Origin: a virus
IMG/VR virus record: IMGVR_UViG_3300035698_012408
Direction: 5' to 3' (one strand)
Length of the DNA: 64,000 nucleotides
The notes beneath the pieces were generated by a model, which was given only the letters and a program-made list of their open reading frames with translations, was not told the origin of the DNA and did not search any database. Each line of letters begins with the position of its first letter. The first letter of the stretch is position 1. Positions 15,469-56,389 of this stretch are shown piece by piece. A program made the translations under genes and the position numbers.

Positions 15469-17076
15469 TTAATAGCAAGTGCCGCTGATTACTCGGAGCG
15501 TTACGCGGCTATCATTTACCATGCTGTCCGGCACGGTATCCGCTAGAGGCTCCAAACCATCAAAAAACGAAACTTCCTCGGTTAATTTATCCACATCCAC
15601 TACGTCGGCCTGCGCTGAGATCTCCACCAGCAGAATCATAGCCGTGTTCGGCGGCACGATCTTTGTCAGCAGCCGGGCGTTGTGCAACCCGATCTGATCT
15701 GTTCCGGTCGTAGCTACCTTCACTTTGACCAAATACGCATTGTTTCGTAAGACGTTTTCAATCAAAAACTGGAGTGGGTTTATGGTCGTCGGTAATTGTG
15801 CCGCTGTTGGTTCCCCAATTTTCTCGTCTCGGGTATCTAGCAAGTGTGCCAGCGTCCCGCGTCTGGCGGACTGCATGGTCTCATCGCAATCGCTCGGCGG
15901 ATACCAGACCTGTTCACACTCCTCACAATCATCGACAGGCCTCAAAGCCTCCTCCACGCCTCGGGCGTGCAGTAGATCGAAGAACGCATCTACGTCAAGC
16001 GGGAACCCTCCAAGCGGCCATGTCAGTTTGGTAAAGCCGCTCGGGTCATCAGTGATAACTGTGAGCGGTACGTCTTTGTTCTCAAACACCAGTTCCGAGT
16101 AAAAACAGCTCGCCAGCCAGCCGTCGCCCATAGCGAGAGCTGACAAATCGGACGGTGTCTCTCCACGATTGAATTCATAAAATGCCAACGTGTCCGTCAG
16201 CGTGTCGCCCCGCTGCACGACATCGCCGACCTCGACGATCGGTGTCGCGTTCAGGTGGAACGAGTACGAGTGCTGGTCAGTTATGATCAACCGGTGTCGC
16301 CGGTCGACCCTGATGTCCACAACAGTCTCCGCGGTCTCTCGCACGAGCGGTACCCCAGTCATCGCGGAGAACGCTGTCATGATCTGCCGTTTCGCCGTGC
16401 CGCCTACCATCGCGTCATACAAGGCGTTCATGATCTCTCGATAGCCAAGGCTGCTCTGCATCCTCGCACCGATCGCGTAACCGAACTGCTTATACACCGT
16501 GTCCCAGTCGAACTCTCCGCGGAATACCCACAGCAGTGCTTCTTCATCAACTGCGATACCGTCTTCGTAAACCGTGCGTTTCGCCACGCGGACGTCGTCG
16601 AACGGGTTTGTATTGAAAATTATGGCGTTGTCACGCAACACGTAATCGACGCCGGCCTGCCACGTCAGTGTCGGATCAGTGAAGCGATTCAGGATCAACG
16701 GCACGGTGACAAGGTCAGCCGGTCGCGGGAACGCATGATCTGGGCGGTCCTGCGGGACATCGTAAAGGTCACCGTCCCCGTAATCTGCATCGTCACCATA
16801 CCGCAGCAGCGACGTGTCGACATTGTTCCTCTCGCTCTGCCGCACATACATCGCATACCAGTTGTCGGTATGGTAAATCGGTACGGTGTAACGGCTGAGC
16901 GCGGCAATGAGCGACAGCACGTCCAACATTGTCTGTTGCTCTACCTGAGCCTTCCCCATCACCACTGCTTTGACTTGGTCATTGCCGTTATACGTGTCCG
17001 CCCACCAGCCGCCCAACAGGGCCAGCAGGTTATTTGGTTTATCATAAACATTTGCTGGGTATGTGTACTCTGCCAT
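15469..17076 (-). CDS. Baseplate wedge-type protein (535 aa), in the position of P2 gpI / T4 gp7-class proteins
   Basis: TAATG overlap with the J-like gene upstream. The call rests on gene order only. Confidence 0.35.
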   Translation of the reverse strand: MAEYTYPANVYDKPNNLLALLGGWWADTYNGNDQVKAVVMGKAQVEQQTMLDVLSLIAALSRYTVPIYHTDNWYAMYVRQSERNNVDTSLLRYGDDADYGDGDLYDVPQDRPDHAFPRPADLVTVPLILNRFTDPTLTWQAGVDYVLRDNAIIFNTNPFDDVRVAKRTVYEDGIAVDEEALLWVFRGEFDWDTVYKQFGYAIGARMQSSLGYREIMNALYDAMVGGTAKRQIMTAFSAMTGVPLVRETAETVVDIRVDRRHRLIITDQHSYSFHLNATPIVEVGDVVQRGDTLTDTLAFYEFNRGETPSDLSALAMGDGWLASCFYSELVFENKDVPLTVITDDPSGFTKLTWPLGGFPLDVDAFFDLLHARGVEEALRPVDDCEECEQVWYPPSDCDETMQSARRGTLAHLLDTRDEKIGEPTAAQLPTTINPLQFLIENVLRNNAYLVKVKVATTGTDQIGLHNARLLTKIVPPNTAMILLVEISAQADVVDVDKLTEEVSFFDGLEPLADTVPDSMVNDSRVTLRVISGTCY

Positions 17077-18716
17077 TATGAGCCTCGGTTTACGACGTTC
17101 AGTCCAATATCCTCAGCGTACAATATGAACGTGGCGGTGTTTCCCGTCACAAGTGTACTCGGAGAATCGGGCAACCATAACTCGTGCTTGTCACGGATGA
17201 CAGCGCGCGTCCCGTCCGGGCGGCGAATCATCCCGTGCATGTCGACCGCACTCACGGCCATCGACCCTTCCAGGTAGTCATGGATCAGGTCAGTGATCTG
17301 CGAGGCGTATAACACGCCTGGGAAATCCAGATTGTTTACCATCGACGCCAGGGCCTGCTTGATCGGATCGAGATCCGGTGCCGTCTCGCCAGTGTCTTTG
17401 ATGACATCGCAGTTGATCGACAAGAAGCACGGGACGCACGCCTTCACCAGCACGTCCGCCATGATATTGGCATGGTCGGCATCGACAGCGAACGCCTGGA
17501 GCTCGGTGATAAGCGGCATGGCCTGCACCGCCACGCTGTAGTCCGCGGTGTCGCCGATCGCAAGATCAACAACCGACGTAGCTGTGTCCTGGAATCGGAT
17601 TACCGCCGTCTGGTAGCGGGTGTAGGCAGCCTCCACGGCAGTCTTGATGTCTGGAATGAACGAGTCGCTGCCGAGATCGTAGCCACGGTCGTCGTAGACC
17701 ACCTCGAAACCGGCGATGTCCGTCGGGTCGTCCGGCCGGCGGATTTGCGAAACTTGGTAGAAGCCAGCGGCGTCATCACGATTTAACGCGAACTGCCAGA
17801 CCCCGCCACCACCGAGCTTCTGAACGAGCACGCACTCTTTTCGCAATGCCACGCTCTGTGGCGTCAGTGCTGGTCTCGCGTAGATGTCGACACGGCCGCC
17901 GCCGGATACCGGGAAGATCCAATGCTGGTCACGCTCCATCTCGGGATCACCATAACCGATGATCGAGTAGTGCAGCGTGTCCGCGAGTGCGGGCAGCGAC
18001 TTGAAGAGTGCGATAATGTTCTGTCGCCCTTGCATCACCTTGGCCGGGATGCCTTCGTCAAGGCGGTTGATCAGATTCTCATTGTCTTCCGTGGCCGTGC
18101 CGCCCTGGAAGTCATTGGACGCGTAAGCCGTGGCGAAGCGAGACGGTATCGTCTCTGGCGTGAATTTGGTGTTCTGCCGGACATTGCCGGCCTCGCCTAC
18201 GTCGTTGGCCGTGATAGGCACGGTGAACTCGTATGACCCGTCACCGCGAGGTTCCAGCGTCCGCTGGTCGAAGCTGGAGGCCGGGGAGCCGGGCGGGTTG
18301 GCTACGATCGGATAGTCCACCGTAAAGTTCTGCCCGTTCGCGGTATAGGTCGAGTTGGCAGAGATTACGACGCTCGTGCTGCCCTCGTATACCAGGGTCA
18401 TCTCACCCTTCGCGCGGGTGCCGATCTTTCGCTCGATCATGAAGTTCGACAGCACGTCGTCGACAAGATCGTCGTCGGCCAGCGTGGGATTCTCATTGAG
18501 CACGAGCAAGCTACGCGCATCCAGCACGTTGTTGACTTCCGTCTGATTGACGCCACCGGAGATGCCGCCAGCCATAAATGCGACAATATCGTGGATTACG
18601 CCACGAGACAGTTCGACTTCCGGGTAGCGCTCTTGAATGAGCTCAGAGAGCTCAGCTTGCGCCTGCGTAACAACGTCCGGGTCGAGTTGTGAAATGTCTG
18701 TTACTTTGAGACCCAT
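17076..18716 (-). CDS. Baseplate J-like protein (P2 gpJ / Mu gp47 / T4 gp6 class)
   Basis: The track start 18731 is a GTG. I prefer ATG 18716, with GGTGGAGGG 7 nt upstream. Segment FMIERKIGTRAKGEMTLVYEGSTSVVISANSTY resembles the Baseplate_J signature (R..A..A.G.v.f......i..gt). It follows a gp25-like gene. Confidence 0.55.
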   Translation of the reverse strand: MGLKVTDISQLDPDVVTQAQAELSELIQERYPEVELSRGVIHDIVAFMAGGISGGVNQTEVNNVLDARSLLVLNENPTLADDDLVDDVLSNFMIERKIGTRAKGEMTLVYEGSTSVVISANSTYTANGQNFTVDYPIVANPPGSPASSFDQRTLEPRGDGSYEFTVPITANDVGEAGNVRQNTKFTPETIPSRFATAYASNDFQGGTATEDNENLINRLDEGIPAKVMQGRQNIIALFKSLPALADTLHYSIIGYGDPEMERDQHWIFPVSGGGRVDIYARPALTPQSVALRKECVLVQKLGGGGVWQFALNRDDAAGFYQVSQIRRPDDPTDIAGFEVVYDDRGYDLGSDSFIPDIKTAVEAAYTRYQTAVIRFQDTATSVVDLAIGDTADYSVAVQAMPLITELQAFAVDADHANIMADVLVKACVPCFLSINCDVIKDTGETAPDLDPIKQALASMVNNLDFPGVLYASQITDLIHDYLEGSMAVSAVDMHGMIRRPDGTRAVIRDKHELWLPDSPSTLVTGNTATFILYAEDIGLNVVNRGS

Positions 18717-18731
18717 CCCTGGTCCCTCCAC

Positions 18732-19214
18732 CTAGTTAAGCTCCACGGGTGTGATAGCAATTGGTAAGATCACCTCTCGCTGATCACCCGCCTGTGACGT
18801 AATGACAACATACAACTGCAAAAACCCGTCCAGCAGTGCAATCTGGTCGAGCACGGCACTGGTAAACCGATCTTCGGGATTCCATGTGTCGTCCTCTTCG
18901 TTAATCAAATTCTGCCGCACTCGGACGGCGGCGAAGTTGAACTGCGCCCGCACGTCTGCTTCATGCCGCAGTCCACCGCGTTTCGCGACTGTCAGAAAAT
19001 TACTGCCTCGCGTGGCCAGATGGTAACCCATCGAGCCGAGCGGGGTCATAAATTCCAGGAGCCAGCGTTGTGCCAGCTTCTGCACGCCCGTGCAAACCGC
19101 CCCGGCAATATCGGGGCCGAATAACGTCTGATCGAGTAACACCTCTCCGCTGCTGGTAGCGCCGCGGATGGCGATAACATCGAATTTTCGTCCAACATAT
19201 TGACTTGCAGACAT
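18732..19214 (-). CDS. gp25/gpW-like baseplate wedge protein (160 aa), tentative
   Basis: Size and position immediately upstream of the J-like gene. Loose motif LLEFMTPLGSMGY...RVRQNL....EDRF.....DQI....GFLQLYVVI. TAAATG junction with the upstream gene. Confidence 0.4.
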   Translation of the reverse strand: MSASQYVGRKFDVIAIRGATSSGEVLLDQTLFGPDIAGAVCTGVQKLAQRWLLEFMTPLGSMGYHLATRGSNFLTVAKRGGLRHEADVRAQFNFAAVRVRQNLINEEDDTWNPEDRFTSAVLDQIALLDGFLQLYVVITSQAGDQREVILPIAITPVELN

Positions 19215-19688
19215 TTATTGCTCCCCGCCAACAGCTCCTGTGGCGATGATGTCTCCGGCTTCTTTTCGAGTCGCCTCTAACGCCATGCCGTGGTGCTGCC
19301 CGTAACGCCTACCGTGTGCGTGACAAATACATCTGCAAATCGTAGCGTGCCGGTGTCGGAACGCTCGCTCCTCACCTGCATTGTAGTCCAACTGCATCTT
19401 AACACTGACCACGTCGCCTGTCGTCCCCGGCTCCGTGGCGGACTTCATGATTTCCTCATAAGCCGTATTGAGCTCTTCTCGCTCAAAACTCGGCTTGTGC
19501 AGCGATTCGATCTTGTGCAGATCCCCCGCGAAGTCTGACGGGATCTGCCACTGCCGCTGCTCCTCTGCCAACAATGCCTTGTAAAGGATGCCAGCCTGCG
19601 CCATGAGATCGTCGATCCGCTGATTGAACACGGGGGCAACGATGCCCTTTTTCTGACCCTTTCGGCCTCCAGCTGGTCTATTTGGCAT
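19215..19688 (-). CDS. Cys/His-cluster protein (157 aa) directly downstream of the sigma factor; possible sigma partner / anti-sigma
   Basis: ATG at 19688, 2 nt after the sigma stop. C-terminal FRHRHATICRCICHAHGRRYGQHHG metal-ligand cluster. Confidence 0.3.
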   Translation of the reverse strand: MPNRPAGGRKGQKKGIVAPVFNQRIDDLMAQAGILYKALLAEEQRQWQIPSDFAGDLHKIESLHKPSFEREELNTAYEEIMKSATEPGTTGDVVSVKMQLDYNAGEERAFRHRHATICRCICHAHGRRYGQHHGMALEATRKEAGDIIATGAVGGEQ

Positions 19689-19690
19689 GA

Positions 19691-20482
19691 TTACACCCCG
19701 TGCCGTTCATCGAGTTGCTCCTGAATCCGTGCTTTCCGCTGACTCACGGCTCCAGGTGAGATTCCGAGCCGCTCTGCGATTTCTCTGTTCTCCAGCACAG
19801 GGGAATTATGCTTACCCAGTGTGAAATCCAAAACCGCTTGATCAACAGGTCCAAGGTCCTGGTATACCATTTCTTCCCACATAACTCCAGCCACATCTGT
19901 GCCAGGAACCGTAGAAGCCGGTGAGTAAGGGGCTCCGGTCTCGTCTGTCAGCGAGCCAGTATTGACCCCGGGCTGCGCCTGCCGAACGTAGCCGATACGC
20001 TTCAATGATAGCCCCGTACTGGCGGCAATCTCCGCGTCACTCGGGTCACGCCCCAGATCCTCGCGTAGTCGCTCCTCGTCATCGACCAAATGCTGCCGAT
20101 CGAGTATGACACCCTCCGGGATGCCGATAATCTGCCTGGATTTCCCCTGAACTCGTTGCAATCCGCGGAGTTGCGACAGCAGATGCGTCTTCATCGTGCC
20201 CTGCTGTGGGTCATACGAATCGAAGGCCCGCAATGCCATGAGTCTTGCTTGACTCTTCGCATGTGGGCCGCCGGTTGGGGCGTACGAGTGGACTGCGGTG
20301 CTCAGGATCGGATCAACCGCTCGCAGCAACGCACCCCGCGTGGTGGCGTCTGGTTTCTTCTGCCACGCCGTAAATGCTTCCGTGTAGGGTTGTTCCATCC
20401 GCTGGTTCGCCGAAGCACCGCCACCGAACGGCATAGTGTCATCCAGCACGGATTTCGGCCTGTTTTTATATTCAGTCGGCAT
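19691..20482 (-). CDS. Sigma-70 family RNA polymerase sigma factor (regions 2, 3 and 4 recognisable)
   Basis: Start re-set to ATG 20482, with GGAGGAG 7 nt upstream and 1 nt after the upstream TAA. Region 2-like ARLMALRAFDSYDPQQGTMKTHLLSQLRG. Region 3-like LGRDPSDAEIAASTGLSLKRIGYV. Region 4 HTH NREIAERLGISPGAVSQRKARIQEQL. Confidence 0.75.
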   Translation of the reverse strand: MPTEYKNRPKSVLDDTMPFGGGASANQRMEQPYTEAFTAWQKKPDATTRGALLRAVDPILSTAVHSYAPTGGPHAKSQARLMALRAFDSYDPQQGTMKTHLLSQLRGLQRVQGKSRQIIGIPEGVILDRQHLVDDEERLREDLGRDPSDAEIAASTGLSLKRIGYVRQAQPGVNTGSLTDETGAPYSPASTVPGTDVAGVMWEEMVYQDLGPVDQAVLDFTLGKHNSPVLENREIAERLGISPGAVSQRKARIQEQLDERHGV

Positions 20483-20483
20483 A

Positions 20484-22109
20484 TTAAGTCTCCTCCGGTG
20501 CCACTTGCGGTACCATCGTACCACCTACCCACTTATTCACGTAAAGCGGCGGACCCGCCACGGACGTCTGCGGTTCTGTGTTTTCCTGCTCCGTTCGGAT
20601 ATGAGCAAGCGTGAAGGCCGTTCCAGCCTTCTGGCTCTCTGAGTTGATCAGATAGGATACTTGCATCACGGTGCCGTAGATGTCCTCTACGAGGTCGTCC
20701 TGCTGGATATTCCTGGCTCCCCCCGCTTTTACCAGCACATTGGAACCCGGGCAGATGTCGAATCGTAGTTTACCCGACAGCTCACCGATGCGTCCCTTCA
20801 ATGATTCTAACACAAACCACTGATGGGCGTAAGCGCTCATCACGCCCTTCTGCGCCACTTGATCGGCCAATATGTCATTGGCGGGGAATTGTGGCTTACC
20901 CGTGACCTCGTCAACGCTGGTGCCGATCGGATCACCCTCAACCCCCTGCGACGTTGCTGAAAAGACGTAAGGTATGACAGAGTCAGCCAGCCACTTCGGT
21001 GCAGATTTAAGCAGCACGACGCCCTTTTTTTGTCCGTCTGGCTGATACCACCCAGCGCAGCCGCCACGATCCAGCTTCATCGCACCACGATTCATGTCCC
21101 AGCCAGACATTGACATGACTGGATGCGTAATGCCAACCGCCCTGAGCACCTGATGCAGCTGGGCGTTCAAATCTGACTGCACGTAATCTTCAGTACCGAT
21201 TACCGCCCACGGCTCACCTTGCAGGCCGCCGGCGAATGGGACGATCAGACAGTCCTCGACACGTGGAATCACCGAGAAAAAATATGACGGGGCATATTCG
21301 CCTACCAGTTTTCCCCAAAGCGTAGTATTGGTAAAATTCTGGTTAGTCTCATTGAGCAACGCTTGCGCCAGTCCATGCTGAATCACTGCACCGTTGGACC
21401 CATTGAGGTCCACCGCCAGCGGGGCGTCGGGATCGACAATGATTCGTGTCAACGCATCTTTGCTATTATCGTCACCGCCGCCGGGCTGCCCGCCAAGCAG
21501 GCTCACCTCGAACGGATCATCATCCGTTATGGCCATCATCCACGGCTTCAGCGTGTTTGTCCACAGATCATCCTGGAATGTTGCCACCAACGAATCGTCA
21601 ACGATGGGAATCCAGGTTGGGTTACCGCCGGCGCCTTCGTCGTCGCCTCGCCCCAGTGCCCTATAGGCCGCGGGGTACGTGTAGTCAGATGGGTTACCAG
21701 GGTGTGACGATGCGGAGATCGCCGACGTGTAATTGAGGTCACCGAGCCAGTGAAGCATGTTGATCGTAAAGTGAGCACCTTCATAACCCCGCCGCCAGCC
21801 GGTTCCGACAATTTTACCTTCAAAGATCTTCATCCGCACCTGATCCGGTACCCCGGGCTCGGCACTCTCCACCTGCGTGACAGTTGCCGTCAGGAAAACC
21901 TCGATCTTCTGTTGTTGCTTCAGGCTACTGATAGCAGAATGAATCGTGGCTGGATTTCCCGTCGCCACGTTACGACCAACAGCAACCAGTAGCGACGCCG
22001 TCGGGATGCTGTTCATCGCCCACGAGGATGCGTACTGCACCACGTCGTCGAACAGAAAGCCCGCGACTTCGGCTTCAACCTTCAGTTTTATTACAGCAAA
22101 AGGTGGCAT
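20484..22109 (-). CDS. Baseplate hub candidate (gpD / Mu gp44 / gp27-VgrG class), 541 aa
   Basis: Start re-set to ATG 22109 (MPPFAVIKLKVEAEV...), with a TAATG overlap with the upstream stop. Lies after the tape measure and before the gp25/J-like genes. Confidence 0.4.
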   Translation of the reverse strand: MPPFAVIKLKVEAEVAGFLFDDVVQYASSWAMNSIPTASLLVAVGRNVATGNPATIHSAISSLKQQQKIEVFLTATVTQVESAEPGVPDQVRMKIFEGKIVGTGWRRGYEGAHFTINMLHWLGDLNYTSAISASSHPGNPSDYTYPAAYRALGRGDDEGAGGNPTWIPIVDDSLVATFQDDLWTNTLKPWMMAITDDDPFEVSLLGGQPGGGDDNSKDALTRIIVDPDAPLAVDLNGSNGAVIQHGLAQALLNETNQNFTNTTLWGKLVGEYAPSYFFSVIPRVEDCLIVPFAGGLQGEPWAVIGTEDYVQSDLNAQLHQVLRAVGITHPVMSMSGWDMNRGAMKLDRGGCAGWYQPDGQKKGVVLLKSAPKWLADSVIPYVFSATSQGVEGDPIGTSVDEVTGKPQFPANDILADQVAQKGVMSAYAHQWFVLESLKGRIGELSGKLRFDICPGSNVLVKAGGARNIQQDDLVEDIYGTVMQVSYLINSESQKAGTAFTLAHIRTEQENTEPQTSVAGPPLYVNKWVGGTMVPQVAPEET

Positions 22110-22903
22110 TACACGTCCTGTGGCATTGTGTTGACACGGTCTACCAGTGCGAGTAGCAACGCACCGTAACGATAAGCGGCAAGCGGGTTGGACACCCACG
22201 TACGCTTCCACGTAGCAACAGGCTCCACGGCGTTCATCGGGAACAAGGCCTGAAGGCCGTCATCGCCCAAAACTGTTTCCACGCGGCCTAGCATCTGTCC
22301 AATGTCGTCAATAGGTTGGCCGATCGATTCGATGGTCCAACGCGTGGATACTGGGGCCTCCTTGATGCGAACACTGAGATTCGAGCCCGGCAACGCGTAA
22401 CTCGGGGACATCCCGCCAGCATAAGTCAACGGATGCACCACGGAATCCGCGGCAGGCGTTCGCTTGTCTATCCGCAGCGTGTCGGCGGTCAGCACCGTGA
22501 CGTCCCACAGTTGCCGGAGAATGTAGTTACCGGATGACACGATATGATTGCCAGTCACATAGATGGTCTCGCCAGTGCCGTTGATTTGTGATACGTCAGT
22601 CTTGAAAATATCACTGAAGAACGTCTCGTCATCCACCAACGGTAAGTACGTCACACGAGGATCGTAATCCGTCACGAACTCTGCCATCTCGGTCGAATGG
22701 ATTATGGACAGCAGTTGCCGCACACGGTAATTCAAGAACACGCGATCTGGCTGCGTGCCAAACAAATGCGAGTACACCTTCGATAATGACGAGTTGAGTC
22801 TGCGCGGAACGAAATTCTCGGGTATGTACTCTTCACCGTAGTAATCAGGTGCATAACCGTCGCGTGTGCGATTCATCAAAAGTGTGCGAACATGATTGAT
22901 CAT
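22109..22903 (-). CDS. Hypothetical baseplate/tail protein (264 aa)
   Basis: ATG at 22903 with GGAG 7 nt upstream. Translationally coupled to the hub candidate. Confidence 0.65.
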   Translation of the reverse strand: MINHVRTLLMNRTRDGYAPDYYGEEYIPENFVPRRLNSSLSKVYSHLFGTQPDRVFLNYRVRQLLSIIHSTEMAEFVTDYDPRVTYLPLVDDETFFSDIFKTDVSQINGTGETIYVTGNHIVSSGNYILRQLWDVTVLTADTLRIDKRTPAADSVVHPLTYAGGMSPSYALPGSNLSVRIKEAPVSTRWTIESIGQPIDDIGQMLGRVETVLGDDGLQALFPMNAVEPVATWKRTWVSNPLAAYRYGALLLALVDRVNTMPQDV

Positions 22904-23395: not shown

Positions 23396-26300
23396 TTATC
23401 CGAGCCCTATTGCGTTATTTACCATGTTCATGACACCTTCGCCTACCGCTGTGAGCGACATCGTGTCGTCATCATGCACGGTAAGGTGCCCACCCTTTAA
23501 CGTCACTGTCATCTTCTTCTCTTCTCCGCCTTCCGGCGTATCTACCATTCCCGGCATGTCTCGCAGTTGTCGAATAATGGTGTCGGTGATCGCATCAGCC
23601 CCGCGGCCTTGCAGCCCCACCCCGTCCAACACTGCGGCATCCCGTTGCATCCTCGCTAGGTCGCCTTGTTCATCTTCCGTGAGGTTCGCGTTACGTAACT
23701 TTTCCGCAGCTTGCTGCCGCTGGGCGTCGGTCAGTCTGCTGGCGTCCGTAACATCCTCACCGAAAAGACCCTTGGCAACAGCCAGCTCTTCAATACCTGC
23801 CCGTCCGCGGATGGCCCGATCTACGATCTCCATACGGGTGCGGCCACCGGCTGTCAACGCTTTGACAATCTCGGCACGGTTGCCTGCCCCACCCATACGG
23901 TCTTGCTGTGCGTCATCGCCGAGCCCGATCAATCGGTCGGCCACGTCGGCTGCTAACACGTCGGTGTCGCCAGAACGGCGTACAAATTTCTGACGATCCA
24001 CGAGTGCTTCTCGCTCAAGGTCTGTCATCTCTTCATCAGAACCTGCCTTATGCACCCGCCCCGTGCTAGTCTTCGTCTGTATTTCCTTCCAATTGGAATC
24101 AAGCTGCTGTTTAGCGTCGCGAGCCTGCTCCGTGACTTTTGCATCCACGCCCTTAGCACCCGCCAATATGTCAGCTACAGAGACGGGAGCACCTAATCGC
24201 TTGCTTTCAGCAGCAGCCAGTCCTTGCAGCTCACGCGCGTCATCCAAGGTCGTCTGCACCAGCTCCAAGCCACCACGTCCCAGTTGCTCCATGCGGACTG
24301 TGTCATCCAATAAGGCCATTGACTGCGCGGATGCTCCGCCGACATAACGATCTGTGGCTTTGTTAATGTCCGCGGCGTCACCGCCTTCGTCGACTAATTT
24401 CGTAAGATTGGTACCAGCATCCCCAATGGCCGCAATGTCATCATCACTGACCTTGGCTCCGACCATCACGCCGAGCTCATCACGTAAATAAGTACCGAAT
24501 GTCTCGCCGGCTTCTGCTTTCTTGAGTTTTTCCTTGTATTCTGGCGTGCCGTAGGCTGAATCACCAAGCATTAAACCTTGTTCTTCCGCCAGCTTGAGTG
24601 CCTCTGCCGGATCTAAATCCCCAGCGCCCTGCATGAATTCCGCACGTTGCTGGTCGTGATATTGTCGTAATGCCACGGCGGCTTCTCTTTGTACTGCTTC
24701 TGATTGCAACCCTTCGGAAGACGTTACGCGACCATCAGCATCCCGTGTCTGAATACCAGTCGCCGTCAAGAAGCGGCCACCGCCGAGATCGATTTCGCCA
24801 GTCCTGGCCAACACCGCACGCAACCGAGAACGCCCGGCCAGCTTTGCAGCATTGCGATCGACAGGATCGGCAGCAGTGGCTTGTGTTGTTACATTCCCTT
24901 CCAGTTCAGCAATCTGCGTGTCCAGATTAGTTAATCCAGCGTCTTGTATCCGTCGATCCCGTGTGCGTTGATCGTTTACTTTTTGCATCGCTTCTTGCTT
25001 CTGCACGTCAGTGGCCTCTGCGGCCGTAATCTCCTCACGTGACGCCTCCATCCTTGCAAGCTCTTGCGTCGCAAAGATACCACCTTCTGTTAATGCCTTC
25101 AGTCCACGTGACGCCTGCTGGAGCTGTTTGAATTGTTCAGGATCGTTAGGATCTAAATTTCTTGATTTCTCTATCAATCCTAGTACCTCGGCGGCGGCAC
25201 CTTGCGGATCAGCAGCAGCTATAGCGGCTAAATCCACACCACCTAAGGCTTTTTGCATTATTTCCGCCGCTGTGGTATCTGGCCCCGCTTGCTGAATGGC
25301 GTCTGAGATACGCTGGATAGGCCCAGCTGTTCCCAAGCTGGAAAACGCACTTTGCATCATAGTCGTGGCATCAGCTTGCCGATCCCGCCGACGCCGTTGT
25401 TCAAATGCCTCCGGCGAATGCGAATCCACATAACCGACAAACGACTTAGTTAGTGGATTCTCTCGCGCAATTGCATCCACGGTAGCGTAGATAGATTCAC
25501 CGACGGTGGAAAGCTGATCTTCTCCACCCATCTGATCAACCGTCTCGTCAGTCATCTTGTCAATTTCAGCGTCTGATGCACCGGGCATACGCTTCTTGAT
25601 TGATTCTCGTAATCTAGCACGGAACGAGGCACCTAACGCGTCGCGGCGGGTGCCAGCTTCTCGTGCCTCCTCTGGTGTGAGGTTACGAACATCGTCGGAC
25701 ACACCTTGCCCGACTTCAAGCATCATCTTACGGAAGCTCGCCGTGTCCGTGACTACGCCGCCCGCTTGCAGCATATCATCAACACCGCTCTCCATGAGGC
25801 GGCTACCAAACCGATTGCCCAAAGCCGGTGCAAACAGCTGTCGCCCCATCTCTGTACCTTGCAGTTCACGCATTATCTGCCCGGTACCATACTGATCTGA
25901 AAACTCTTGATTGCCATAGCGGTCCATGAGAATCGACATCGAATCTGTACGAGTGACACCAACATTTGCTAGCAGGCCTTGCAGTCGATTACGATTGATT
26001 GCGACGTTTCTGGTCTGCGTCTCCCCCTGGGCGTCCGTGAAAGTGTATGACGTGTCTTTCCGCTCCACCGCTTGCATTAACATATCGAGCTCGCTGTCCT
26101 TGCGAGCTGTAAACATGCCAGCATCCCGCATCCGCATCAACGCAGAGAGATTATTGGTAGCCGGAGACGCGTTGGCGTGCATGGTTAATTGCTGATCCGC
26201 CATTGTCAACTGCTCTTGAGTGAGTGCTCCCCATGCTGGAATGTCAAGCCCACGAGTATCTGCAACCGCAGCCCCGAAACCCACGGCGTGCTGCGTGGCC

Positions 26301-27604
26301 GTCACTGCAAACCGTCGATCAAGCCCAAGCTGGTCAGCCAACGGGGCAGCCTGCGACATCAAGGCCATCATGCCCTGCATGCCGACACCGGTTTGCTTCG
26401 CCAGGACGTGCGTCTTCCGTACCATGTCTTCCATCGCTGCCGGACTCATCGTAGCGAGCCCACCCTGCGTCAGCATGTCCAGGCCGTTAATGATTTCCCG
26501 CATCGGGGCGTTAGGGTTACCCATGTCCCCGAAAATATCCCGCATCGCCTTGACTGCCCCTGACAGGTTCTTCAGCTTATCACCAATACGTTGTGCATCA
26601 GCTGCCCGAATGATCTCGCTACCGCCGGGCATGCCTTCCAGATCCTCCGTGGAGGTTATAGCTTCATCGGCGCCGTTGACGCCTCGCTTCAGTTGCGAGA
26701 ACGTGGTACGCACATCATTCCTCGCTGCCTCCATCTCTGATTCAGATGGCCGTTTACCGTCACCAGCAAGCGCTCGGATACCCGGGCGTTGTCTCGCCAG
26801 TCGGTTGATCATCCGCTCCGACATCTGATCCGGTAATTCTTGCAGGCGCTCCTGTATGGACAGCATCCCGGCGGGTCGTCCAAGCAACCCACGAGATTGC
26901 ATCTCGTTCGCGAAAATACCGGCTTGGCCAGCTGTCATCCCACGCATCTTCTGCACGTCCGCATCCTCGCCGTAGAGCTCGTCAAACAGCTCTGTAGTCA
27001 CGCGGCCGGCTGATGCCCCGGAATACCCGACGCGTCCGGTGATCGGGTCGATTCTCGTGCGTAATGCTTGATGCAGTTGTTGTGCCATGACCGTGGCAGA
27101 GCCGCGAGAGCCGTGCATGCGGTCAATCAGGTCGGGTCCCGCTATCTGTGCAATCAACGGAGTGTATTGATTGATACCCTCCGCGATTCTAAAATTGCGT
27201 GCTCTCGATCGATCAGACAATGGTTTCCCTGTCATCATCTGCTGCATGCCGCCCAGCATGTTCTCAATAGACTCGATGTCTTGATTACCACCTATTGCCA
27301 TAGCCTGCTGGCTATCCATGTAGTATTTATTGGCCTCCATTTGATCATAGAAATTTTGTTCCGGGAAGAACTGCGCAGGCATTTTTCCCGGACCCATGAG
27401 TTGCTGTGCAATCATTGGCATCGCCATCTGCATCATGGCACCGGTACCGCCAGACATGCCAGCATTAAAGTTGAACGGCCCAGTGTATCGTGGCCCCAGC
27501 CATCCGCCGTGCATCGGGTTACGCCCAGCTGTCATCTGCGCAACTTGGTATTGCTGCGGGGCAGCGTATCCGCCTTGCATTCCGGGCCAACTCGTAATAA
27601 CCAT
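23396..27604 (-). CDS. Tape measure protein candidate (1402 aa)
   Basis: Very long, with helix-prone Ala/Gln/Arg/Asp-rich composition. Lies between the tube module and the baseplate hub. The N-terminus is Met/Gly/Pro/Gln-rich (GMQGGYAAPQQYQ...GAMMQMAMPMIAQQLMGPGKMP). Confidence 0.6.
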   Translation of the reverse strand: MVITSWPGMQGGYAAPQQYQVAQMTAGRNPMHGGWLGPRYTGPFNFNAGMSGGTGAMMQMAMPMIAQQLMGPGKMPAQFFPEQNFYDQMEANKYYMDSQQAMAIGGNQDIESIENMLGGMQQMMTGKPLSDRSRARNFRIAEGINQYTPLIAQIAGPDLIDRMHGSRGSATVMAQQLHQALRTRIDPITGRVGYSGASAGRVTTELFDELYGEDADVQKMRGMTAGQAGIFANEMQSRGLLGRPAGMLSIQERLQELPDQMSERMINRLARQRPGIRALAGDGKRPSESEMEAARNDVRTTFSQLKRGVNGADEAITSTEDLEGMPGGSEIIRAADAQRIGDKLKNLSGAVKAMRDIFGDMGNPNAPMREIINGLDMLTQGGLATMSPAAMEDMVRKTHVLAKQTGVGMQGMMALMSQAAPLADQLGLDRRFAVTATQHAVGFGAAVADTRGLDIPAWGALTQEQLTMADQQLTMHANASPATNNLSALMRMRDAGMFTARKDSELDMLMQAVERKDTSYTFTDAQGETQTRNVAINRNRLQGLLANVGVTRTDSMSILMDRYGNQEFSDQYGTGQIMRELQGTEMGRQLFAPALGNRFGSRLMESGVDDMLQAGGVVTDTASFRKMMLEVGQGVSDDVRNLTPEEAREAGTRRDALGASFRARLRESIKKRMPGASDAEIDKMTDETVDQMGGEDQLSTVGESIYATVDAIARENPLTKSFVGYVDSHSPEAFEQRRRRDRQADATTMMQSAFSSLGTAGPIQRISDAIQQAGPDTTAAEIMQKALGGVDLAAIAAADPQGAAAEVLGLIEKSRNLDPNDPEQFKQLQQASRGLKALTEGGIFATQELARMEASREEITAAEATDVQKQEAMQKVNDQRTRDRRIQDAGLTNLDTQIAELEGNVTTQATAADPVDRNAAKLAGRSRLRAVLARTGEIDLGGGRFLTATGIQTRDADGRVTSSEGLQSEAVQREAAVALRQYHDQQRAEFMQGAGDLDPAEALKLAEEQGLMLGDSAYGTPEYKEKLKKAEAGETFGTYLRDELGVMVGAKVSDDDIAAIGDAGTNLTKLVDEGGDAADINKATDRYVGGASAQSMALLDDTVRMEQLGRGGLELVQTTLDDARELQGLAAAESKRLGAPVSVADILAGAKGVDAKVTEQARDAKQQLDSNWKEIQTKTSTGRVHKAGSDEEMTDLEREALVDRQKFVRRSGDTDVLAADVADRLIGLGDDAQQDRMGGAGNRAEIVKALTAGGRTRMEIVDRAIRGRAGIEELAVAKGLFGEDVTDASRLTDAQRQQAAEKLRNANLTEDEQGDLARMQRDAAVLDGVGLQGRGADAITDTIIRQLRDMPGMVDTPEGGEEKKMTVTLKGGHLTVHDDDTMSLTAVGEGVMNMVNNAIGLG

Positions 27605-32222: not shown

Positions 32223-32265
32223 CGCTCCACCTTTCTAAGGTGCAAATGGGTCGCATAACGGCCCC

Positions 32266-32293
32266 GGGCGGCCCAGATTGCTCCGAGCCGCCC
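32266..32293 (-). terminator. Weak GC hairpin downstream of the tube gene
   Basis: gggcggc (32266-32272) pairs with gccgccc (32287-32293), with a 14-nt loop. There is no U-tract. Confidence 0.2.
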
Positions 32294-32346
32294 CATACCG
32301 ACTCCGCCAAACGGAATCTCAAATAAACCGTATCACCGAACTGGAG

Positions 32347-32784: not shown

Positions 32785-32866
32785 AATTTCACCTCTTGTG
32801 ATTATACGGGGCCAAGGTCATTTGACCCCGTTGTGCTAATGACTAAACGCTACAAACCGAGCCGTC
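32785..32866 (-). promoter_or_regulatory. Sheath-tube spacer with a perfect TATAAT (plus-strand attata, 32801-32806) and an adjacent hairpin (32806-32831)
   Basis: Read directly. The minus-strand sense is ACGGGGTCAAATGACCTTGGCCCCG-TATAAT-cacaagaggtgaaattATG. I found no convincing -35. Confidence 0.25.
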
Positions 32867-35812
32867 CTATACGACCAAGTGCAGCTCGATGTTGTTCAAC
32901 GGGTACGGGACAACGAGATCCACGATGATCACAACGCGATCCGCAGCAAGCGGATGGATGTAGATCATCGGTGCTTCCGTCTCCGGGTCCAAACGAATCG
33001 ACCCGCTGACCAGCTGCGCACCAAGTTCGGTCGTCACACCGTTGCTCTTGAGGAACTTGATCGTCTGGTTGACATGATACTCCAACGCGCGGAGCATCGT
33101 CGGCGTTGCATTGCTGCGACCGATGTACGGGCGGAGACGTCGCAGGAACAGGTAGGACATCGAGTCCACGTTCCGGCGAACCATCTCTTCCTTTCGATTC
33201 AGGTCGAGCATGTTGGTGGTCAACGCGTGTCGCGTATGCGGCGTGCCGTCACGGTCTTCCGTGCCGATCCACACACCACCCGCAGCGAGTTCGTCCAGCT
33301 GGCTGTCGCTGAAGTAATCACGGGTGCGAGACGACAGATCATCGAAACCAGCGATTTCGACGTTCGTCAGGCCCTGCTGCGGTACGACACCGGACGCGAG
33401 TCCAGCGAGAGCACAGCACAGGAAATAGCCATCTTGCGCGTTACCACCGGTACCGACAATGTCCGGCCACACCACACAGACGCGGCGATCCGCGAAGCTC
33501 TGGGCGATGTCGACGATCGCTTCGACGAGTTCTCCCTTTTCCTGGGTATGCCAGATTTCGATCTTCTGGGCAACCGAGATCGGGCTGCTGTGGCCGCTGA
33601 GCAGCAACAGCGAACTCTGGGAAAGCACGGTGTCCACGATAAACTCGCTGTACGACTGATTGCCGAACGCGTCAATCGTGTAGAGGAATCGCACAACATC
33701 ACCAGCTTCCACACCGTAGGTGATGAAACCAGCGTTGCTGTCCGGGACACTCAGCAGCGTGTACTGAATGGCCGTGGCATCCGGGTTGTCTTCCAACGTA
33801 GCCAGCACGACTTCGCCGTCGATGGACGTCGGAGTGAGAGCTTGCGTATCCGCATCGCTCTTTCCAACAACCATCTTCGTAGCAGGCGTCTTGGCGTTGA
33901 CGAACATCGCCTTCCAGTTGCCCGACTCCGCCGAGCTCTCGCTCGTGACGTGGGCCTGGAAGAGATTGTGAACCTCACGGGTATACGTGAGAGGCACGAA
34001 GTTGTAAAGGTCATCACGACCATCAACCCGTTCGAGCACGTCTTGCCAGCTGTCCAGATCGTCCGGGTCGGCGACGGCCGTGTAGGCCACCTTCGTACCG
34101 TTCGAGTTCTGGAGAGCACGGTAGACGCCCCACTTGAGCAGATTGAGCTCATCGAGCTGTCCGGGTATCTCGTCGATGTCGGCCACGTCGTCAATGAAAT
34201 TGACTTCGTCAGCCAGATCCGACAGCCATTCCCGATACTCGATGTACTGGATGCCCCACGAGTTCGGATCGGTGGTGCTGGCCAGTCGGCCATCCCACAC
34301 GGTCATCGGCTGTTCCACGCCGCTGTCCGTCCAATCGGCGTCGTAAGCCGTGATACCGGCCTTGACCGCCAACTGCGTCGATTCGATTTCGTAGTTGACC
34401 AGCGGGGGACTGCTGAGACGTGCTTCCGTGACTTCGATGGTCTTCGGAATGAAGAGTCGAAGATCCAGATCAGTTGCGCTCTGGATGGCGATCGGAAGAT
34501 CGTCTTGCAGGGTCAGCGTGCGGATCGGCCCGTTGGCTCCGCTAACGACCGAGACATAGAACTTATCGCCGGTCCGTAGACCTGCGAGGGAGCCGTCGCC
34601 GAGCGACACGCTGCTGGCACTGTCGATCGATTGCACACTGGAACCCTGGCAATCAACGAACTGAGCCGTGAGACCCCACGCACCGACGGGGAAGGCCACA
34701 CTGTCACTGGTGACCGTCGTCGGACCAGAGCTGTCCAATCCCTTGACCGTCGTGACGGTAACTTCGGGAAGGTCAGCCCACAAGCCACCCTTGGTGACTT
34801 CGACGACGTAAGTGTCAATGTCGGGACCTGCATAGCTGTCGTCGACAACTTCGAGACAGCCACGCTCGAACGCCTGGGTGGCGTCGATTTCCCACTTTTG
34901 ACCGACCACGAATTGGTCGCTCTCAACCGACTCCGAAGAAGCCGATAGCGAACAATCACCAGTCGTGGTGTTGAACTGCACTTCCAGCCCGCGGGTACCG
35001 ATCTCAACCCAGTCACCGAAGTCACCAGGATCAACCTCATCCACGTTGTCCGTGCCCGAGTCACTGACGATTCGCAGTCGCGCGGCTTGACAACCCGCGA
35101 TGGACGAACGAATGACTTCGACCTCGTACCGTTCGTTGACGTACCCGTCTTCCAGGCCGTCATAGTCGGCATTCGAGTTGGTGAGACCAACGCAGTTGAC
35201 GACACCATCGATTTGATCCGACGTAACAACCGCGGCGGTAGAGAGTTGGTTGTTGTCATCAACCGTGGCCGGGAACACGGTGGCAGCAACGGTATCGGCG
35301 GCAAAGCCGGTAACGGTGGTCCACAGGTCGTGCTCGTCACAGGCGCTGCCGACACCGGTCACGCCACGCACGTAGGCGACATCACCCACTTGCACGTCGC
35401 GGTCGAGGAACAGCCCGGAACGGGGCCATTGCGTGCCGTTAGCTTTGTAGCTGAGGGCCGAGGATCGAATCCAATTCTTCCGAGTGGAGACAGGCTGCAC
35501 AAGCCCGCGACCTTCAGAAGCATCGCCGATCAGGTCCTCATGGTACAGGAGCAGGGCGTCCTCGATCATGAGACGCACACTGGCCTCATCAACGAGTGAG
35601 CCAGCTTGACGTTCGGGCCACGGATAGACCGCGTCGTCATCTTTATCATACGGTCCGACGTTGATCAGGATCTTCTCGTCGTCCTCGTCGTAACGATGGA
35701 GCAACGCGTTCGGTCCCGAGATATGTGCTCGGAGCGGATCGGTCACCTCGTTGGGGACGATGCTAAATTCCTGAAAAACGAGAACCTGCGGTTTCACATA
35801 AGTGACAGACAT
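32867..35812 (-). CDS. Contractile tail sheath protein candidate (981 aa)
   Basis: Lies immediately upstream of the tube-sized gene. The C-terminal region LDLNRKEEMVRRNVDSMSYLFLRRLRPYIGRSNATPTMLRALEYHVNQTIKFL resembles the conserved sheath C-terminal domain. Confidence 0.55.
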   Translation of the reverse strand: MSVTYVKPQVLVFQEFSIVPNEVTDPLRAHISGPNALLHRYDEDDEKILINVGPYDKDDDAVYPWPERQAGSLVDEASVRLMIEDALLLYHEDLIGDASEGRGLVQPVSTRKNWIRSSALSYKANGTQWPRSGLFLDRDVQVGDVAYVRGVTGVGSACDEHDLWTTVTGFAADTVAATVFPATVDDNNQLSTAAVVTSDQIDGVVNCVGLTNSNADYDGLEDGYVNERYEVEVIRSSIAGCQAARLRIVSDSGTDNVDEVDPGDFGDWVEIGTRGLEVQFNTTTGDCSLSASSESVESDQFVVGQKWEIDATQAFERGCLEVVDDSYAGPDIDTYVVEVTKGGLWADLPEVTVTTVKGLDSSGPTTVTSDSVAFPVGAWGLTAQFVDCQGSSVQSIDSASSVSLGDGSLAGLRTGDKFYVSVVSGANGPIRTLTLQDDLPIAIQSATDLDLRLFIPKTIEVTEARLSSPPLVNYEIESTQLAVKAGITAYDADWTDSGVEQPMTVWDGRLASTTDPNSWGIQYIEYREWLSDLADEVNFIDDVADIDEIPGQLDELNLLKWGVYRALQNSNGTKVAYTAVADPDDLDSWQDVLERVDGRDDLYNFVPLTYTREVHNLFQAHVTSESSAESGNWKAMFVNAKTPATKMVVGKSDADTQALTPTSIDGEVVLATLEDNPDATAIQYTLLSVPDSNAGFITYGVEAGDVVRFLYTIDAFGNQSYSEFIVDTVLSQSSLLLLSGHSSPISVAQKIEIWHTQEKGELVEAIVDIAQSFADRRVCVVWPDIVGTGGNAQDGYFLCCALAGLASGVVPQQGLTNVEIAGFDDLSSRTRDYFSDSQLDELAAGGVWIGTEDRDGTPHTRHALTTNMLDLNRKEEMVRRNVDSMSYLFLRRLRPYIGRSNATPTMLRALEYHVNQTIKFLKSNGVTTELGAQLVSGSIRLDPETEAPMIYIHPLAADRVVIIVDLVVPYPLNNIELHLVV

Positions 35813-40209: not shown

Positions 40210-40248
40210 TTTACCCTCCCTGGTGGAAAAAGTGACTGCGTTTCACGC

Positions 40249-40269
40249 ATTGTAGCATATTAGTCTGCG
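40249..40269 (-). promoter_or_regulatory. CGCAGACTAA 10-mer followed by an extended -10-like TGCTACAAT
   Basis: The minus-strand sense is CGCAGACTAAtaTGCTACAATg. On the plus strand, attgtagca is at 40249-40257 and ttagtctgcg at 40260-40269. It lies between a terminator hairpin and the start at 40209. Confidence 0.35.
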
Positions 40270-40276
40270 CATAGAA

Positions 40277-40315
40277 ACGTGCCCTGCGGCCGATTTTAAC
40301 CGACCGTGGGCACGT
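40277..40315 (-). terminator. Intrinsic-terminator-like hairpin after CDS 40361..40858
   Basis: acgtgccc (40277-40284) pairs with gggcacgt (40308-40315), with further imperfect pairing inside. On the transcript it is followed by UUCUAU. Confidence 0.55.
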
Positions 40316-40360
40316 TGTATAGTCACACAGCGATTTGCATCGGCGTGGTACAATTTTTGA

Positions 40361-41796: not shown

Positions 41797-41820
41797 TGGG
41801 GAAATCTCCGTTACTTACGG

Positions 41821-41830
41821 GTAGTATGCG
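41821..41830 (-). promoter_or_regulatory. Variant of the intergenic 10-mer (CGCATACTAC)
   Basis: Plus strand gtagtatgcg. Matches CGCAGACTAA at 8 of 10 positions. Lies just downstream of the capsid terminator. Confidence 0.25.
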
Positions 41831-41837
41831 AATGAAA

Positions 41838-41866
41838 CCGGCCCGGCCCCGAAGGGCCGTAGCCGG
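41838..41866 (-). terminator. Strong intrinsic terminator after the major capsid candidate
   Basis: The transcript reads UUUUUGU-CCGGCUACGGCCC-UUCG-GGGCCGGGCCGG-UUUCAUU. This is a GC stem with a UUCG tetraloop and a U-rich tail, ~27 nt after the TAA at 41893. Confidence 0.75.
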
Positions 41867-41892
41867 ACAAAAATCTTCACTACCAACAACGC

Positions 41893-42822
41893 TTACGCGA
41901 AGTCGGCTCGGGCGATGCCACCGGCGTGTCCGATACTTCCACCCATCGTCTGATAGGCGAAGAATTCGAGCATGTACGCTTCACGACGAATGTACATGGT
42001 CGTATCTTCTAGCAGATACGACTTACCGATGAACTTGGGATCGGCGAACATGAACATCGAGTCGTCGGGGACCAGATCGCGCTTGATCGTGATGATCCAA
42101 CGCATGTTCATGAAGTTGGCTTCAGCCCAACCGTTCTTGATGACGTCCTGGGAGAAATCTCCGCCCATTTCGTCACGTCCAAACTTCTCGATCTCCTTGA
42201 TCGTCACGTTGTTGATCAGGCACGTATGCGATTCGAGATGACTCGGACCGCGCGGCATGATCTTACGGGCGTCTTGGAGGGTCTCACGGGTGATGCCACC
42301 TTCAATGGTTTCCCACTGAACGACATTGCCGTTGTACGGCACCGGGACGTCCGGGCCGATCATCAAAGCGTTGCACGCAGAGATGAATTTCGAGTCTTCT
42401 TCGGCTAGCATATCTTTGATGCTATTATCCGAAAGGACCTGTCGAATGTCCATGACCCATGTGCGAAGCTCGTCCACGTCCTTGACGAATCGAGGCGTGA
42501 CAATGCGGTCGAACATTACGCGGTAACGAGGACCACGAATGTAGACATTGACAGGCAACGTCGCGAACGGAATCGAGATCGCAGCCGGGGAATCCGGCTC
42601 TTTGTCGACGACTTTGACAGGCTTGTCGGTGTCGACTTGCCGGTCCAACTCGTCGTTGGAAATCTGGAGGGGTGGAAGAATTCGGCGGAAGAAGCCGTCC
42701 TCACGCATCTTGGTTCGCGTGAAGTCGTTGACGGCGTCAATCGCTTGCTTCTCCATCCCGGGAGTTTGCAGTTGCTCAAACAGTGTCTCGTTGAGCAGCT
42801 GGGTATCAGTTTGGGTTGCCAT
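41893..42822 (-). CDS. Major capsid protein candidate (HK97-fold class), ~309 aa
   Basis: The track start 42858 is a TTG. I prefer ATG 42822, with GGAGG 9 nt upstream. Supporting points are its size, its position after the protease/scaffold-like genes, and the strong terminator directly downstream. The fold was not verified. Confidence 0.5.
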   Translation of the reverse strand: MATQTDTQLLNETLFEQLQTPGMEKQAIDAVNDFTRTKMREDGFFRRILPPLQISNDELDRQVDTDKPVKVVDKEPDSPAAISIPFATLPVNVYIRGPRYRVMFDRIVTPRFVKDVDELRTWVMDIRQVLSDNSIKDMLAEEDSKFISACNALMIGPDVPVPYNGNVVQWETIEGGITRETLQDARKIMPRGPSHLESHTCLINNVTIKEIEKFGRDEMGGDFSQDVIKNGWAEANFMNMRWIITIKRDLVPDDSMFMFADPKFIGKSYLLEDTTMYIRREAYMLEFFAYQTMGGSIGHAGGIARADFA

Positions 42823-42907
42823 CGTAGCAAACCTCCGTGTTTTCGGGATGTCAGCCAATCATGGCCGATTGATTACAATGTACGCTCTGCTTTCGGAAGA
42901 CCACCTG

Positions 42908-56142: not shown

Positions 56143-56389
56143 TAAATCTTACATCCGGTAACGGTACTTGCCCGATCGATTGCACCATAACAGTCTTGTG
56201 CAGTCCCAGGCCATGCAAAAGCGACTGAAACTCCTGTTCCCGCCCCTCTTCCAAAGCTGAGGCTACTATCGTCCCTGGTTCCACCTCCACAGCAGCAACG
56301 ATCGGGTTGTCGTATCGATCATACACGACAACCCGCGTTACCTCAATACGCTGGGGATTACCCAGCTTGGTGTGAAACTCAACTATCAT
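56135..56389 (-). CDS. Hypothetical small protein (84 aa) inside the RNAP gene cluster
   Basis: ATGA overlap upstream and an 8-nt overlap (ATGCGTAA) with the beta' C-half start. Confidence 0.6.
   Translation of the reverse strand: MIVEFHTKLGNPQRIEVTRVVVYDRYDNPIVAAVEVEPGTIVASALEEGREQEFQSLLHGLGLHKTVMVQSIGQVPLPDVRFNA

Follow-up and report, generated by a model that had tools for sequence, protein, structure and literature searches.

The 64,000-nucleotide (nt) stretch of the IMG/VR virus record IMGVR_UViG_3300035698_012408, referred to here as the window, carries a gene for a sigma-70-family factor of 263 amino acids (aa) (19691..20482, minus strand) within a block of tail and baseplate genes, followed directly by the gene of a 157-aa protein. 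The minus strand carries every substantial open reading frame (ORF) of the window, and the block that runs from 32222 down to 1913 has no intergenic gap longer than 19 nt. Its genes encode, in order, a tape-measure protein (TMP) candidate of 1402 aa, proteins of 156, 264, and 541 aa, the sigma factor, proteins of 157 and 160 aa, a Baseplate_J protein, and proteins of 535, 214, and 644 aa. Gene calls by the Joint Genome Institute (JGI) on other contigs with the identical protein concur with the lengths of 541, 263, 157, and 160 aa, and the G+C content of the sigma gene and of the 157-aa gene is that of the window (0.57).

The sigma gene is translationally coupled to the gene upstream. The TAA stop codon of the 541-aa gene at 20484-20486 is separated by the single nucleotide 20483 from the sigma ATG at 20480-20482, and the mRNA at this start reads CACCGGAGGAGACTTAATATG. 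These coordinates agree with the initial annotation, made from the sequence alone, which had placed the sigma gene 1 nt after the stop codon of a baseplate "hub" gene, with its Shine-Dalgarno site (20490-20496) inside the hub coding sequence (CDS). Past the sigma stop codon, 2 nt precede the start of the 157-aa gene, as had also been read, and the stop codon of that gene abuts the ATG of the next one.

The sigma protein gave a significant match to the Pfam family Sigma70_r3 (32.4 bits against a gathering cut-off of 25.3, E 1e-7), scores narrowly under the cut-offs for Sigma70_r4 (22.0 bits) and Sigma70_r4_2 (22.3 bits), and no match to Sigma70_r2. A family profile built from 37 orthologue sequences matched the SigA, SigB, RpoS, FliA, and WhiG chains in the PDB, with a best E value of 1.8e-15, and profile positions 17 to 250 aligned with regions 2.1 through 4.2 of solved sigma factors. 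Within this span, positions 17 to 110 align with region 2 of SigA, SigB, and RpoS, which identifies the sigma2 domain, and the alignment continues through region 4.2 of the sigma4 domain, where the helices at residues 212 to 222, 232 to 239, and 243 to 261 were modeled with a predicted local distance difference test (pLDDT) score above 90. The AlphaFold model has a mean pLDDT of 83 and values mostly above 90 in the helical domains, and its top 50 PDB matches in Foldseek are all sigma-70-family proteins (probability 1.0, 228 to 278 aligned columns). The low template modeling scores (TM-scores) of these matches are due to the different domain arrangements of free and holoenzyme-bound sigma factors. 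Sigma regions 2, 3, and 4 had all been recognized by eye; region 3 is upheld by Pfam and region 4 by the profile, whereas region 2 escapes Pfam and is recovered by the profile and the fold. The helix-turn-helix string NREIAERLGISPGAVSQRKARIQEQL is found at residues 232 to 257.

The factor has a sigma3 domain and no region 1.1, as in group 3 sigma factors; in the AlphaFold model, the first sigma helix is preceded by just about 30 residues of low order, and the superfamily model for extracytoplasmic function (ECF) factors covers only its C-terminal 30 residues. The sigma3 domain together with the short disordered N terminus therefore makes the protein group-3-like and not ECF, the two classes between which the initial annotation had left the choice to Pfam searches. 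The closest NCBIfam subfamilies are FliA_WhiG and SigBFG, and membership in either was rejected, since the scores (24.1 and 20.3 bits) are far under the curated cut-offs (189.6 and 234.35 bits, respectively); the protein therefore forms a lineage of its own. In region 2.3, the tryptophan (Trp) dyad of primary sigma factors (TYATWWI) is replaced by THLLSQL. The disordered N terminus (residues 1 to 24, 20413-20482) bears the motif D-x-[TS]-[LM]-P-F-[AG], which is found in most orthologues and is missing from a subclade with a shorter N terminus (P0069, P0070, P0072, P0084, P0088, and P0098). This motif could be a docking or packaging peptide.

The recognition helix SPGAVSQRKAKIQ of region 4.2 is near-invariant across the 37 orthologues, which share 31 to 70% overall identity, as is the IPE motif at the boundary of regions 2.4 and 3.0. 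Conservation within the protein is highest in the recognition helix and in the core-binding region 2.2. Within the module, no protein is more conserved than the sigma factor, whose mean pairwise distance is 0.43, versus 0.46 to 0.61 for its neighbors. The near-invariant recognition helix and IPE motif, together with this highest conservation in the module, argue for a working DNA-binding initiation factor, and they also argue for a promoter element that is conserved across the lineage.

At least 100 cluster-level relatives of the sigma factor were found, the largest of their contigs reaching about 230 kb. Synteny was surveyed by BLAST in four loci fetched by identity (L001 to L004) and in 69 IMG/VR loci. 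The order TMP-156-264-541-sigma-157-160-J-535-214-644 recurs in essentially all of these approximately 70 loci (L001 to L004 and about 65 of those from IMG/VR), at sigma identities of 31 to 55%. In the most divergent loci (sigma about 31 to 37% identical), several neighbors went undetected, and the sigma gene keeps its place ahead of the J-like gene, with unchanged spacing. The placement of the sigma gene is no accident but was inherited from an ancestor and is fixed in the lineage. The initial annotation had found a transcription factor in the middle of a structural operon odd; the placement is real, but it is no oddity, being shared by descent and having, in a cultured phage described below, a counterpart whose product was found in virions together with RNA polymerase (RNAP). 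That the gene encodes a real, if divergent, sigma-70-family factor fixed in its position in the baseplate block is close to certain.

The window also encodes a bacterial-type RNAP, split into a beta-beta'N fusion and a beta'C protein, and these genes share it with major-head, sheath, and baseplate genes. It thus has the beta and beta' homologues on a tailed-phage contig that define a multisubunit-RNAP-encoding member of the Caudovirales, or mReC (Weinheimer & Aylward 2020). The beta-beta'N gene was recovered by an exact-seed scan in 33 of the 69 sigma-bearing contigs, including 18 of the 29 contigs of at least 150 kb; the sigma contigs that lack it are fragments or probable seed misses. It lies about 34 to 41 kb from the sigma gene in the three contigs checked, as in the window, where the coordinates put the RNAP genes about 34 to 37 kb away, in keeping with the roughly 35 kb first estimated. 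The phage enzyme matches bacterial beta with an E value of 1e-70 and is much closer to bacterial RNAP than has been reported for phiKZ-type enzymes. Its beta-beta'N protein aligns contiguously with residues 164 to 540 of bacterial beta', including the clamp-helix region on which sigma2 docks, and also aligns through the bacterial beta flap region. The usual docking surfaces for a sigma factor are therefore plausibly retained.

Two further features of the polymerase genes were observed. The break in beta' falls near bacterial beta' residue 540 to 550, at about the position of the cyanobacterial gamma/beta' split, and the match to the chain 8syi_D, "subunit gamma," stops at residue 551 of 624. 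In several IMG/VR relatives (L116-L119, L125, L135-L138, L140, L147, L152, and L154), the beta-beta'N match extends over 5.2 to 6.7 kb, versus about 4.3 kb, which implies insertions. A homing endonuclease is annotated under the beta-beta'N match of Vibrio phage D181, and the insertions may be of the intein or intron type.

Relatives in culture are limited to Salmonella phage Arash and three phages of Vibrio, with a beta-beta'N protein 31% identical over 95% of its length. Arash likewise encodes a beta-beta'N fusion and a beta'C protein, and in both Arash and the window phage the RNAP genes lie in the same-strand virion block. Arash gp10, annotated as "RNA polymerase sigma factor" (OQ632216.1), is the orthologue of the window sigma factor (hhalign probability 99%, E 7e-18, 201 columns). 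It also sits in the tail module, between gp8/gp9 and a structural run that includes the J-like gp13, and the Vibrio phages D69, D148, and D181 have the sigma orthologue at the same coordinate as Arash. The upstream neighbors differ from those in the window, gp8 being a hydrolase, followed by gp9. The Arash genome paper annotated the sigma factor and listed gp10 in its virion table, and it did not discuss the position or conservation of the gene (PMC10585845).

Mass spectrometry coupled to liquid chromatography (LC-MS) of purified Arash virions retrieved Gp206 (beta) as the most-detected protein, with 3,516 spectra, Gp216 (beta') with 1,210 spectra, and the sigma factor Gp10 with 467 spectra and 24 unique peptides at 100% coverage (PMC10585845). 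When these published counts were divided here by protein length, the sigma factor gave 2.0 spectra per residue, beta-beta'N (Gp206) 2.3, beta'C (Gp216) 2.0, and the adjacent helicase (Gp217) 2.4, with the portal at 1.5 and the baseplate proteins that flank the sigma factor at 0.7 to 1.0. In abundance, the Arash sigma factor therefore follows the polymerase and not the neighbors of its gene. This abundance, together with the peak of conservation in region 2.2 and in the recognition helix of region 4.2, makes it hardly credible that a sigma-like protein was turned into a structural part of the tail or baseplate and lost its role in transcription, a reading for which only the position between the "hub" and wedge genes speaks. 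Arash has a second sigma factor, gp196 (L075:657-1694), which carries a canonical Trp dyad (YAGWWV), has its gene outside the virion block, among replication genes, and does not appear in the published virion table (PMC10585845). This suggests that a virion and a nonvirion sigma factor divide the labor in Arash. All relatives of gp196 in IMG/VR belong to the Arash clade.

These observations can be brought together in a model in which the sigma gene would have no promoter of its own and would be transcribed together with the tail and baseplate genes. Given this cotranscription and the translational coupling, the factor would be made late. The most likely reason for such wiring would be that it is packaged into the particle alongside the phage polymerase and brought with it into the next host, in which the holoenzyme would start early transcription from phage promoters, which would then be independent of the host polymerase. 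We give somewhat better than even credence to the window sigma factor being made late and delivered with the virion as an initiation factor for the RNAP of the phage itself. What the factor is and how it is built, the coupling of its gene to the one upstream, the conserved placement, and the co-occurrence with a phage RNAP are observed, and its presence in the virion of the window phage is suggested by the Arash orthologue.

Several points weigh against this model. The evidence from virions comes from Arash, which is outside the immediate clade of the window phage and whose sigma factor is only about 22 to 26% identical to that of the window. The Arash preparation contained 116 proteins, among them ribonucleotide reductases, a primase, and a kinase (PMC10585845). 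The missing Trp dyad puts the promoter-melting mechanism of the factor in question, and no second sigma factor was found in the 64-kb window with the family hidden Markov model (HMM) or Arash gp196 as a query. That the factor pairs with the phage core and not the host core is, like its early action, something that we infer only.

Late coexpression with structural genes would fit equally well a sigma factor that is never packaged and that steers the phage or host core to late promoters in the same cell, in a self-reinforcing loop. The logic of such a loop is comparable to that of T4 gp55 and SPO1 gp34. This is a serious rival, even if a rather improbable one. The gene lies in an apparent late structural operon, and the authors of the Arash study concede that detection in virions may reflect carry-over of abundant infected-cell proteins (PMC10585845). 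The promoter that such a factor recognizes could be the motif ATTGTA(A/C)C, which is enriched in spacers before structural genes. ATTGTA/TTGTAA is the 6-mer most enriched on the sense strand in the intergenic spacers, and of the seven sense-strand copies of ATTGTA, five lie in spacers, which make up about 1.8 kb (binomial P of 4e-7, uncorrected). Each site follows an A/T run just past the upstream stop codon, 40 to 140 nt ahead of the next start, and at three TTGTAA sites the sequence CATGATT or CTACGAT occurs nine nt on. The tail/baseplate block holds no site. The motif is a candidate phage promoter element, and a search of the spacers for a bipartite element, which the initial annotation had suggested, gave an enriched ATTGTA(A/C)C without a convincing second element or link to the sigma factor. 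Against an unpackaged late sigma factor, a gene that starts late transcription would need to be expressed before its own operon. Moreover, the normalized spectra of the Arash sigma factor are similar to those of the RNAP subunits, in a particle in which RNAP is the most-detected protein, and the RNAP genes lie in the same single-strand virion block.

The 157-aa protein belongs to a family of 694 representative clusters of about 140 to 165 aa each, recovered by a full-database HMM search. Its AlphaFold model is all-alpha, with a moderate pLDDT of 69. No match was found in PHROGs, NCBIfam, or PDB sequences, and Pfam gave nothing beyond noise, and no zf-HC2 or RskA, for the protein and a set of 131 family sequences. 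Foldseek of the model against the PDB and BFVD was also without a match (best PDB E value of 1.8, with no anti-sigma factor among the 50 matches listed). The initial annotation had reported the pattern H-x3-C-x-C in this protein, and H114-x3-C118-x-C120 is indeed present, with glutamine at position 131. The protein does not end in the segment FRHRHATICRCICHAHGRRYGQHHG, as had been stated; this segment spans residues 110 to 134, in the C-terminal third, and 23 residues follow. Conservation was counted across 165 aligned relatives. The cysteines C118, C120, and C122 are conserved in 18%, 35%, and 10% of these, respectively, and 29 of the 165 lack cysteine entirely, whereas histidine occurs in 78% at position 114, 67% at position 123, and 68% at position 131. 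Near-invariant positions of the family are R70, G88, Q99, E107, R108, R113, R119, and R127.

The initial annotation had raised the possibility that the sigma factor is paired with an anti-sigma factor, namely, the 157-aa protein, which would be of the zinc anti-sigma (ZAS) type and keep the sigma factor inactive. The ZAS signature is HxxxCxxC within an N-terminal anti-sigma domain. Like the ZAS proteins RsrA, ChrR, and RslA (zf-HC2), the 157-aa protein is small, is encoded directly downstream of a sigma factor and cotranscribed with it, at a distance of 2 nt in every locus of the clade, and has histidines and cysteines close together. Unlike them, it shows HxxxCxC in place of HxxxCxxC, a spacing that is conserved in none of its relatives; its cluster is misplaced toward the C terminus, the would-be cysteine ligands are unconserved, and neither a ZAS family nor an anti-sigma fold was matched. 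The Arash clade has at this position gp11, for which homology to the 157-aa protein was considered and rejected (hhalign E 0.15). The assignment as a ZAS protein was therefore dropped, and a pair of this type is very unlikely.

Covariation of the two proteins was assessed by a mirror-tree analysis, in which distances were regressed on the phylogenetic signal shared by the J-like, 535-aa, and 214-aa proteins, and which yields no P value. The residual correlation between the sigma factor and the 157-aa protein is 0.50, the joint highest in the module, versus 0.25, 0.09, -0.13, and 0.03 between the sigma factor and other tail proteins. This speaks for a partnership of either type but amounts to a weak hint from sequence distances, as the 541-aa "hub" protein also correlates with the 157-aa protein (0.40). 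A partner of another type, for instance, a chaperone, an adaptor for packaging, or an anti-sigma factor of a new kind, is less improbable than a ZAS protein and still unlikely; the conserved arginine-rich helices of such a partner would contact the sigma factor or nucleic acid. In its favor are the residual covariation, the adjacency that is invariant within the clade, the size of the family, and the near-invariance of R70, R108, R113, R119, and R127. However, adjacency to the baseplate genes is equally invariant, so that the product may simply be a small protein of the baseplate or of assembly, no fusion of the two proteins occurs among the 150 matches listed, and the Arash clade retains the sigma factor without the 157-aa protein. 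The 157-aa protein may be an accessory partner of the sigma factor or a small virion or assembly protein.

The features of the window are collected in Table 1. Of the baseplate labels given by the initial annotation, that of the J-like wedge protein is confirmed by Baseplate_J and phrog_6, whereas "hub" and "gp25-like" describe position only, the 541-aa and 160-aa proteins having no match in Pfam, PHROGs, NCBIfam, or the PDB. Family searches with the tape-measure candidate were also without a match. The mechanical "hub" ORF (20484-22211, minus strand, 575 aa, GTG start) is overextended; the true start is the ATG at 22109, which gives 541 aa, as called by the JGI, and a 1-nt overlap with the stop codon of the 264-aa gene. 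Between the two RNAP genes (56386-57354, minus strand) lies the gene of a low-complexity protein of 322 aa that is rich in proline, glycine, and methionine and has near-identical repeats MPPGGAPPMDPAMMGG. The larger spacers (32223-32346, 32785-32866, 40210-40360, and 41797-41892) contain G+C-rich hairpins, for example, GGGGCGGCTCGGAGCAATCTGGGCCGCCC, which look like intrinsic terminators between units of structural genes. No DNA similarity of the region to sequenced phages was found, and host assignment through genome collections gave no matches.

Table 1. Coordinates, strand, and supporting evidence of features in the 64,000-nt window
Feature	Position	Strand	Evidence
Sigma-70-family factor, 263 aa, ATG start; sigma2-sigma3-sigma4 without region 1.1, group-3-like	19691..20482	-	Pfam, profile, Foldseek, 100+ orthologues
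Region 4.2 helix-turn-helix NREIAERLGISPGAVSQRKARIQEQL, sigma residues 232-257	19712..19789	-	Sequence
Region 3.0/3.1, sigma residues 137-170	19973..20074	-	Pfam Sigma70_r3 match
GGAGGAG Shine-Dalgarno site of the sigma gene, within the upstream CDS	20490..20496	-	Read off the sequence
541-aa protein encoded ahead of sigma, "hub/spike" from position alone	20484..22109	-	Position kept in related loci
157-aa all-helical protein, orphan family, adjoins sigma throughout the clade	19215..19688	-	HMM family, AlphaFold model
Segment FRHRHATICRCICHAHGRRYGQHHG of the 157-aa protein (residues 110-134), rich in Arg/His/Cys	19287..19361	-	Sequence
160-aa protein, "gp25-like" by position only	18732..19214	-	Synteny
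Baseplate J-like wedge protein	17076..18731	-	Pfam Baseplate_J E 4.9e-10, phrog_6 E 1.4e-16
Tape-measure candidate, 1402 aa, head of the conserved block	23396..27604	-	Size and position, orthologues in related loci
Phage RNA polymerase beta-beta'N fusion, 1495 aa	57383..61870	-	Pfam Rpb2_6 E 1.7e-52, Rpb1_2 E 1.8e-26
Phage RNA polymerase beta'C, 633 aa	54241..56142	-	Pfam Rpb1_5 E 3.6e-23
Weak major-head match	41893..42858	-	Family search
Tail-sheath match	32867..35812	-	Family search
ATTGTA/TTGTAA sites (candidate promoter element), first T	1912, 36778, 40353, 42878, 43546 (and 62942)	-	

The sigma2-sigma3-sigma4 architecture without region 1.1 is that of the bacterial group 3 sigma factors (FliA/WhiG, SigB/SigF/SigG), and FliA also lacks the Trp dyad of region 2.3. 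The window factor differs from these in its lineage-specific N-terminal peptide D-x-T-[LM]-P-F and in being encoded by a phage beside baseplate genes. Jumbo phages of the phiKZ/AR9 type likewise have multisubunit RNAPs akin to bacterial beta/beta' and package a polymerase for early transcription. The sigma-like fifth subunits of their nonvirion polymerases, phiKZ gp68 and AR9 gp226, are dedicated to promoter recognition, as is proposed here for the window sigma factor. Two separate polymerases are present in those phages, and no sigma factor is recognizable in them by sequence (PMC13282480, PMC7824862), whereas the window phage has one bacterial-like core and a sequence-recognizable sigma-70 homologue. 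A broader and rather doubtful scheme would have one bacterial-type core and two sigma factors replace the two-polymerase strategy of phiKZ-like phages. The baseplate sigma factor without the Trp dyad would then be packaged stoichiometrically with the core and injected to fire early promoters, a canonical, nonvirion sigma factor such as Arash gp196 would act later, and the 157-aa protein would be a partner of a new kind, specific to the sigma factor. It might be an anti-sigma factor that shuts off early promoters late in infection or an adaptor for loading the holoenzyme into the particle.

Phage-encoded sigma factors such as T4 gp55, SPO1 gp28/gp34, and those of jumbo phages without an RNAP likewise set temporal classes of transcription, but these phages have no polymerase of their own, unlike the window phage. 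To our knowledge, none of their sigma genes lies within a baseplate block, and none of the products is a virion protein. Reviews describe jumbo phages that encode an RNAP as lacking sigma homologues and those that encode sigma factors as lacking an RNAP and hijacking the host enzyme (PMC13282480, PMC7824862), and the paper that defined RNAP-encoding Caudovirales makes no mention of sigma factors (Weinheimer & Aylward 2020). Against this dichotomy, the present lineage of approximately 200-kb phages has both a bacterial-type polymerase and a recognizable sigma factor. Phage sigma factors and virion-packaged polymerases were known before; new are the combination of a bacterial-type phage core with a sequence-recognizable sigma factor and the fixation of its gene in the baseplate block. 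Should the polymerase and the sigma factor be delivered together, a complete sigma-dependent holoenzyme would be carried in the virus particle, which would offer a tractable system for promoter opening by a viral sigma factor without the usual melting residues and a handle on the start of infection in widespread uncultured phages. Since Arash and the Vibrio phages are in culture, the delivery model can be tested in the phages whose sigma gene occupies the same kind of position as that of the window.

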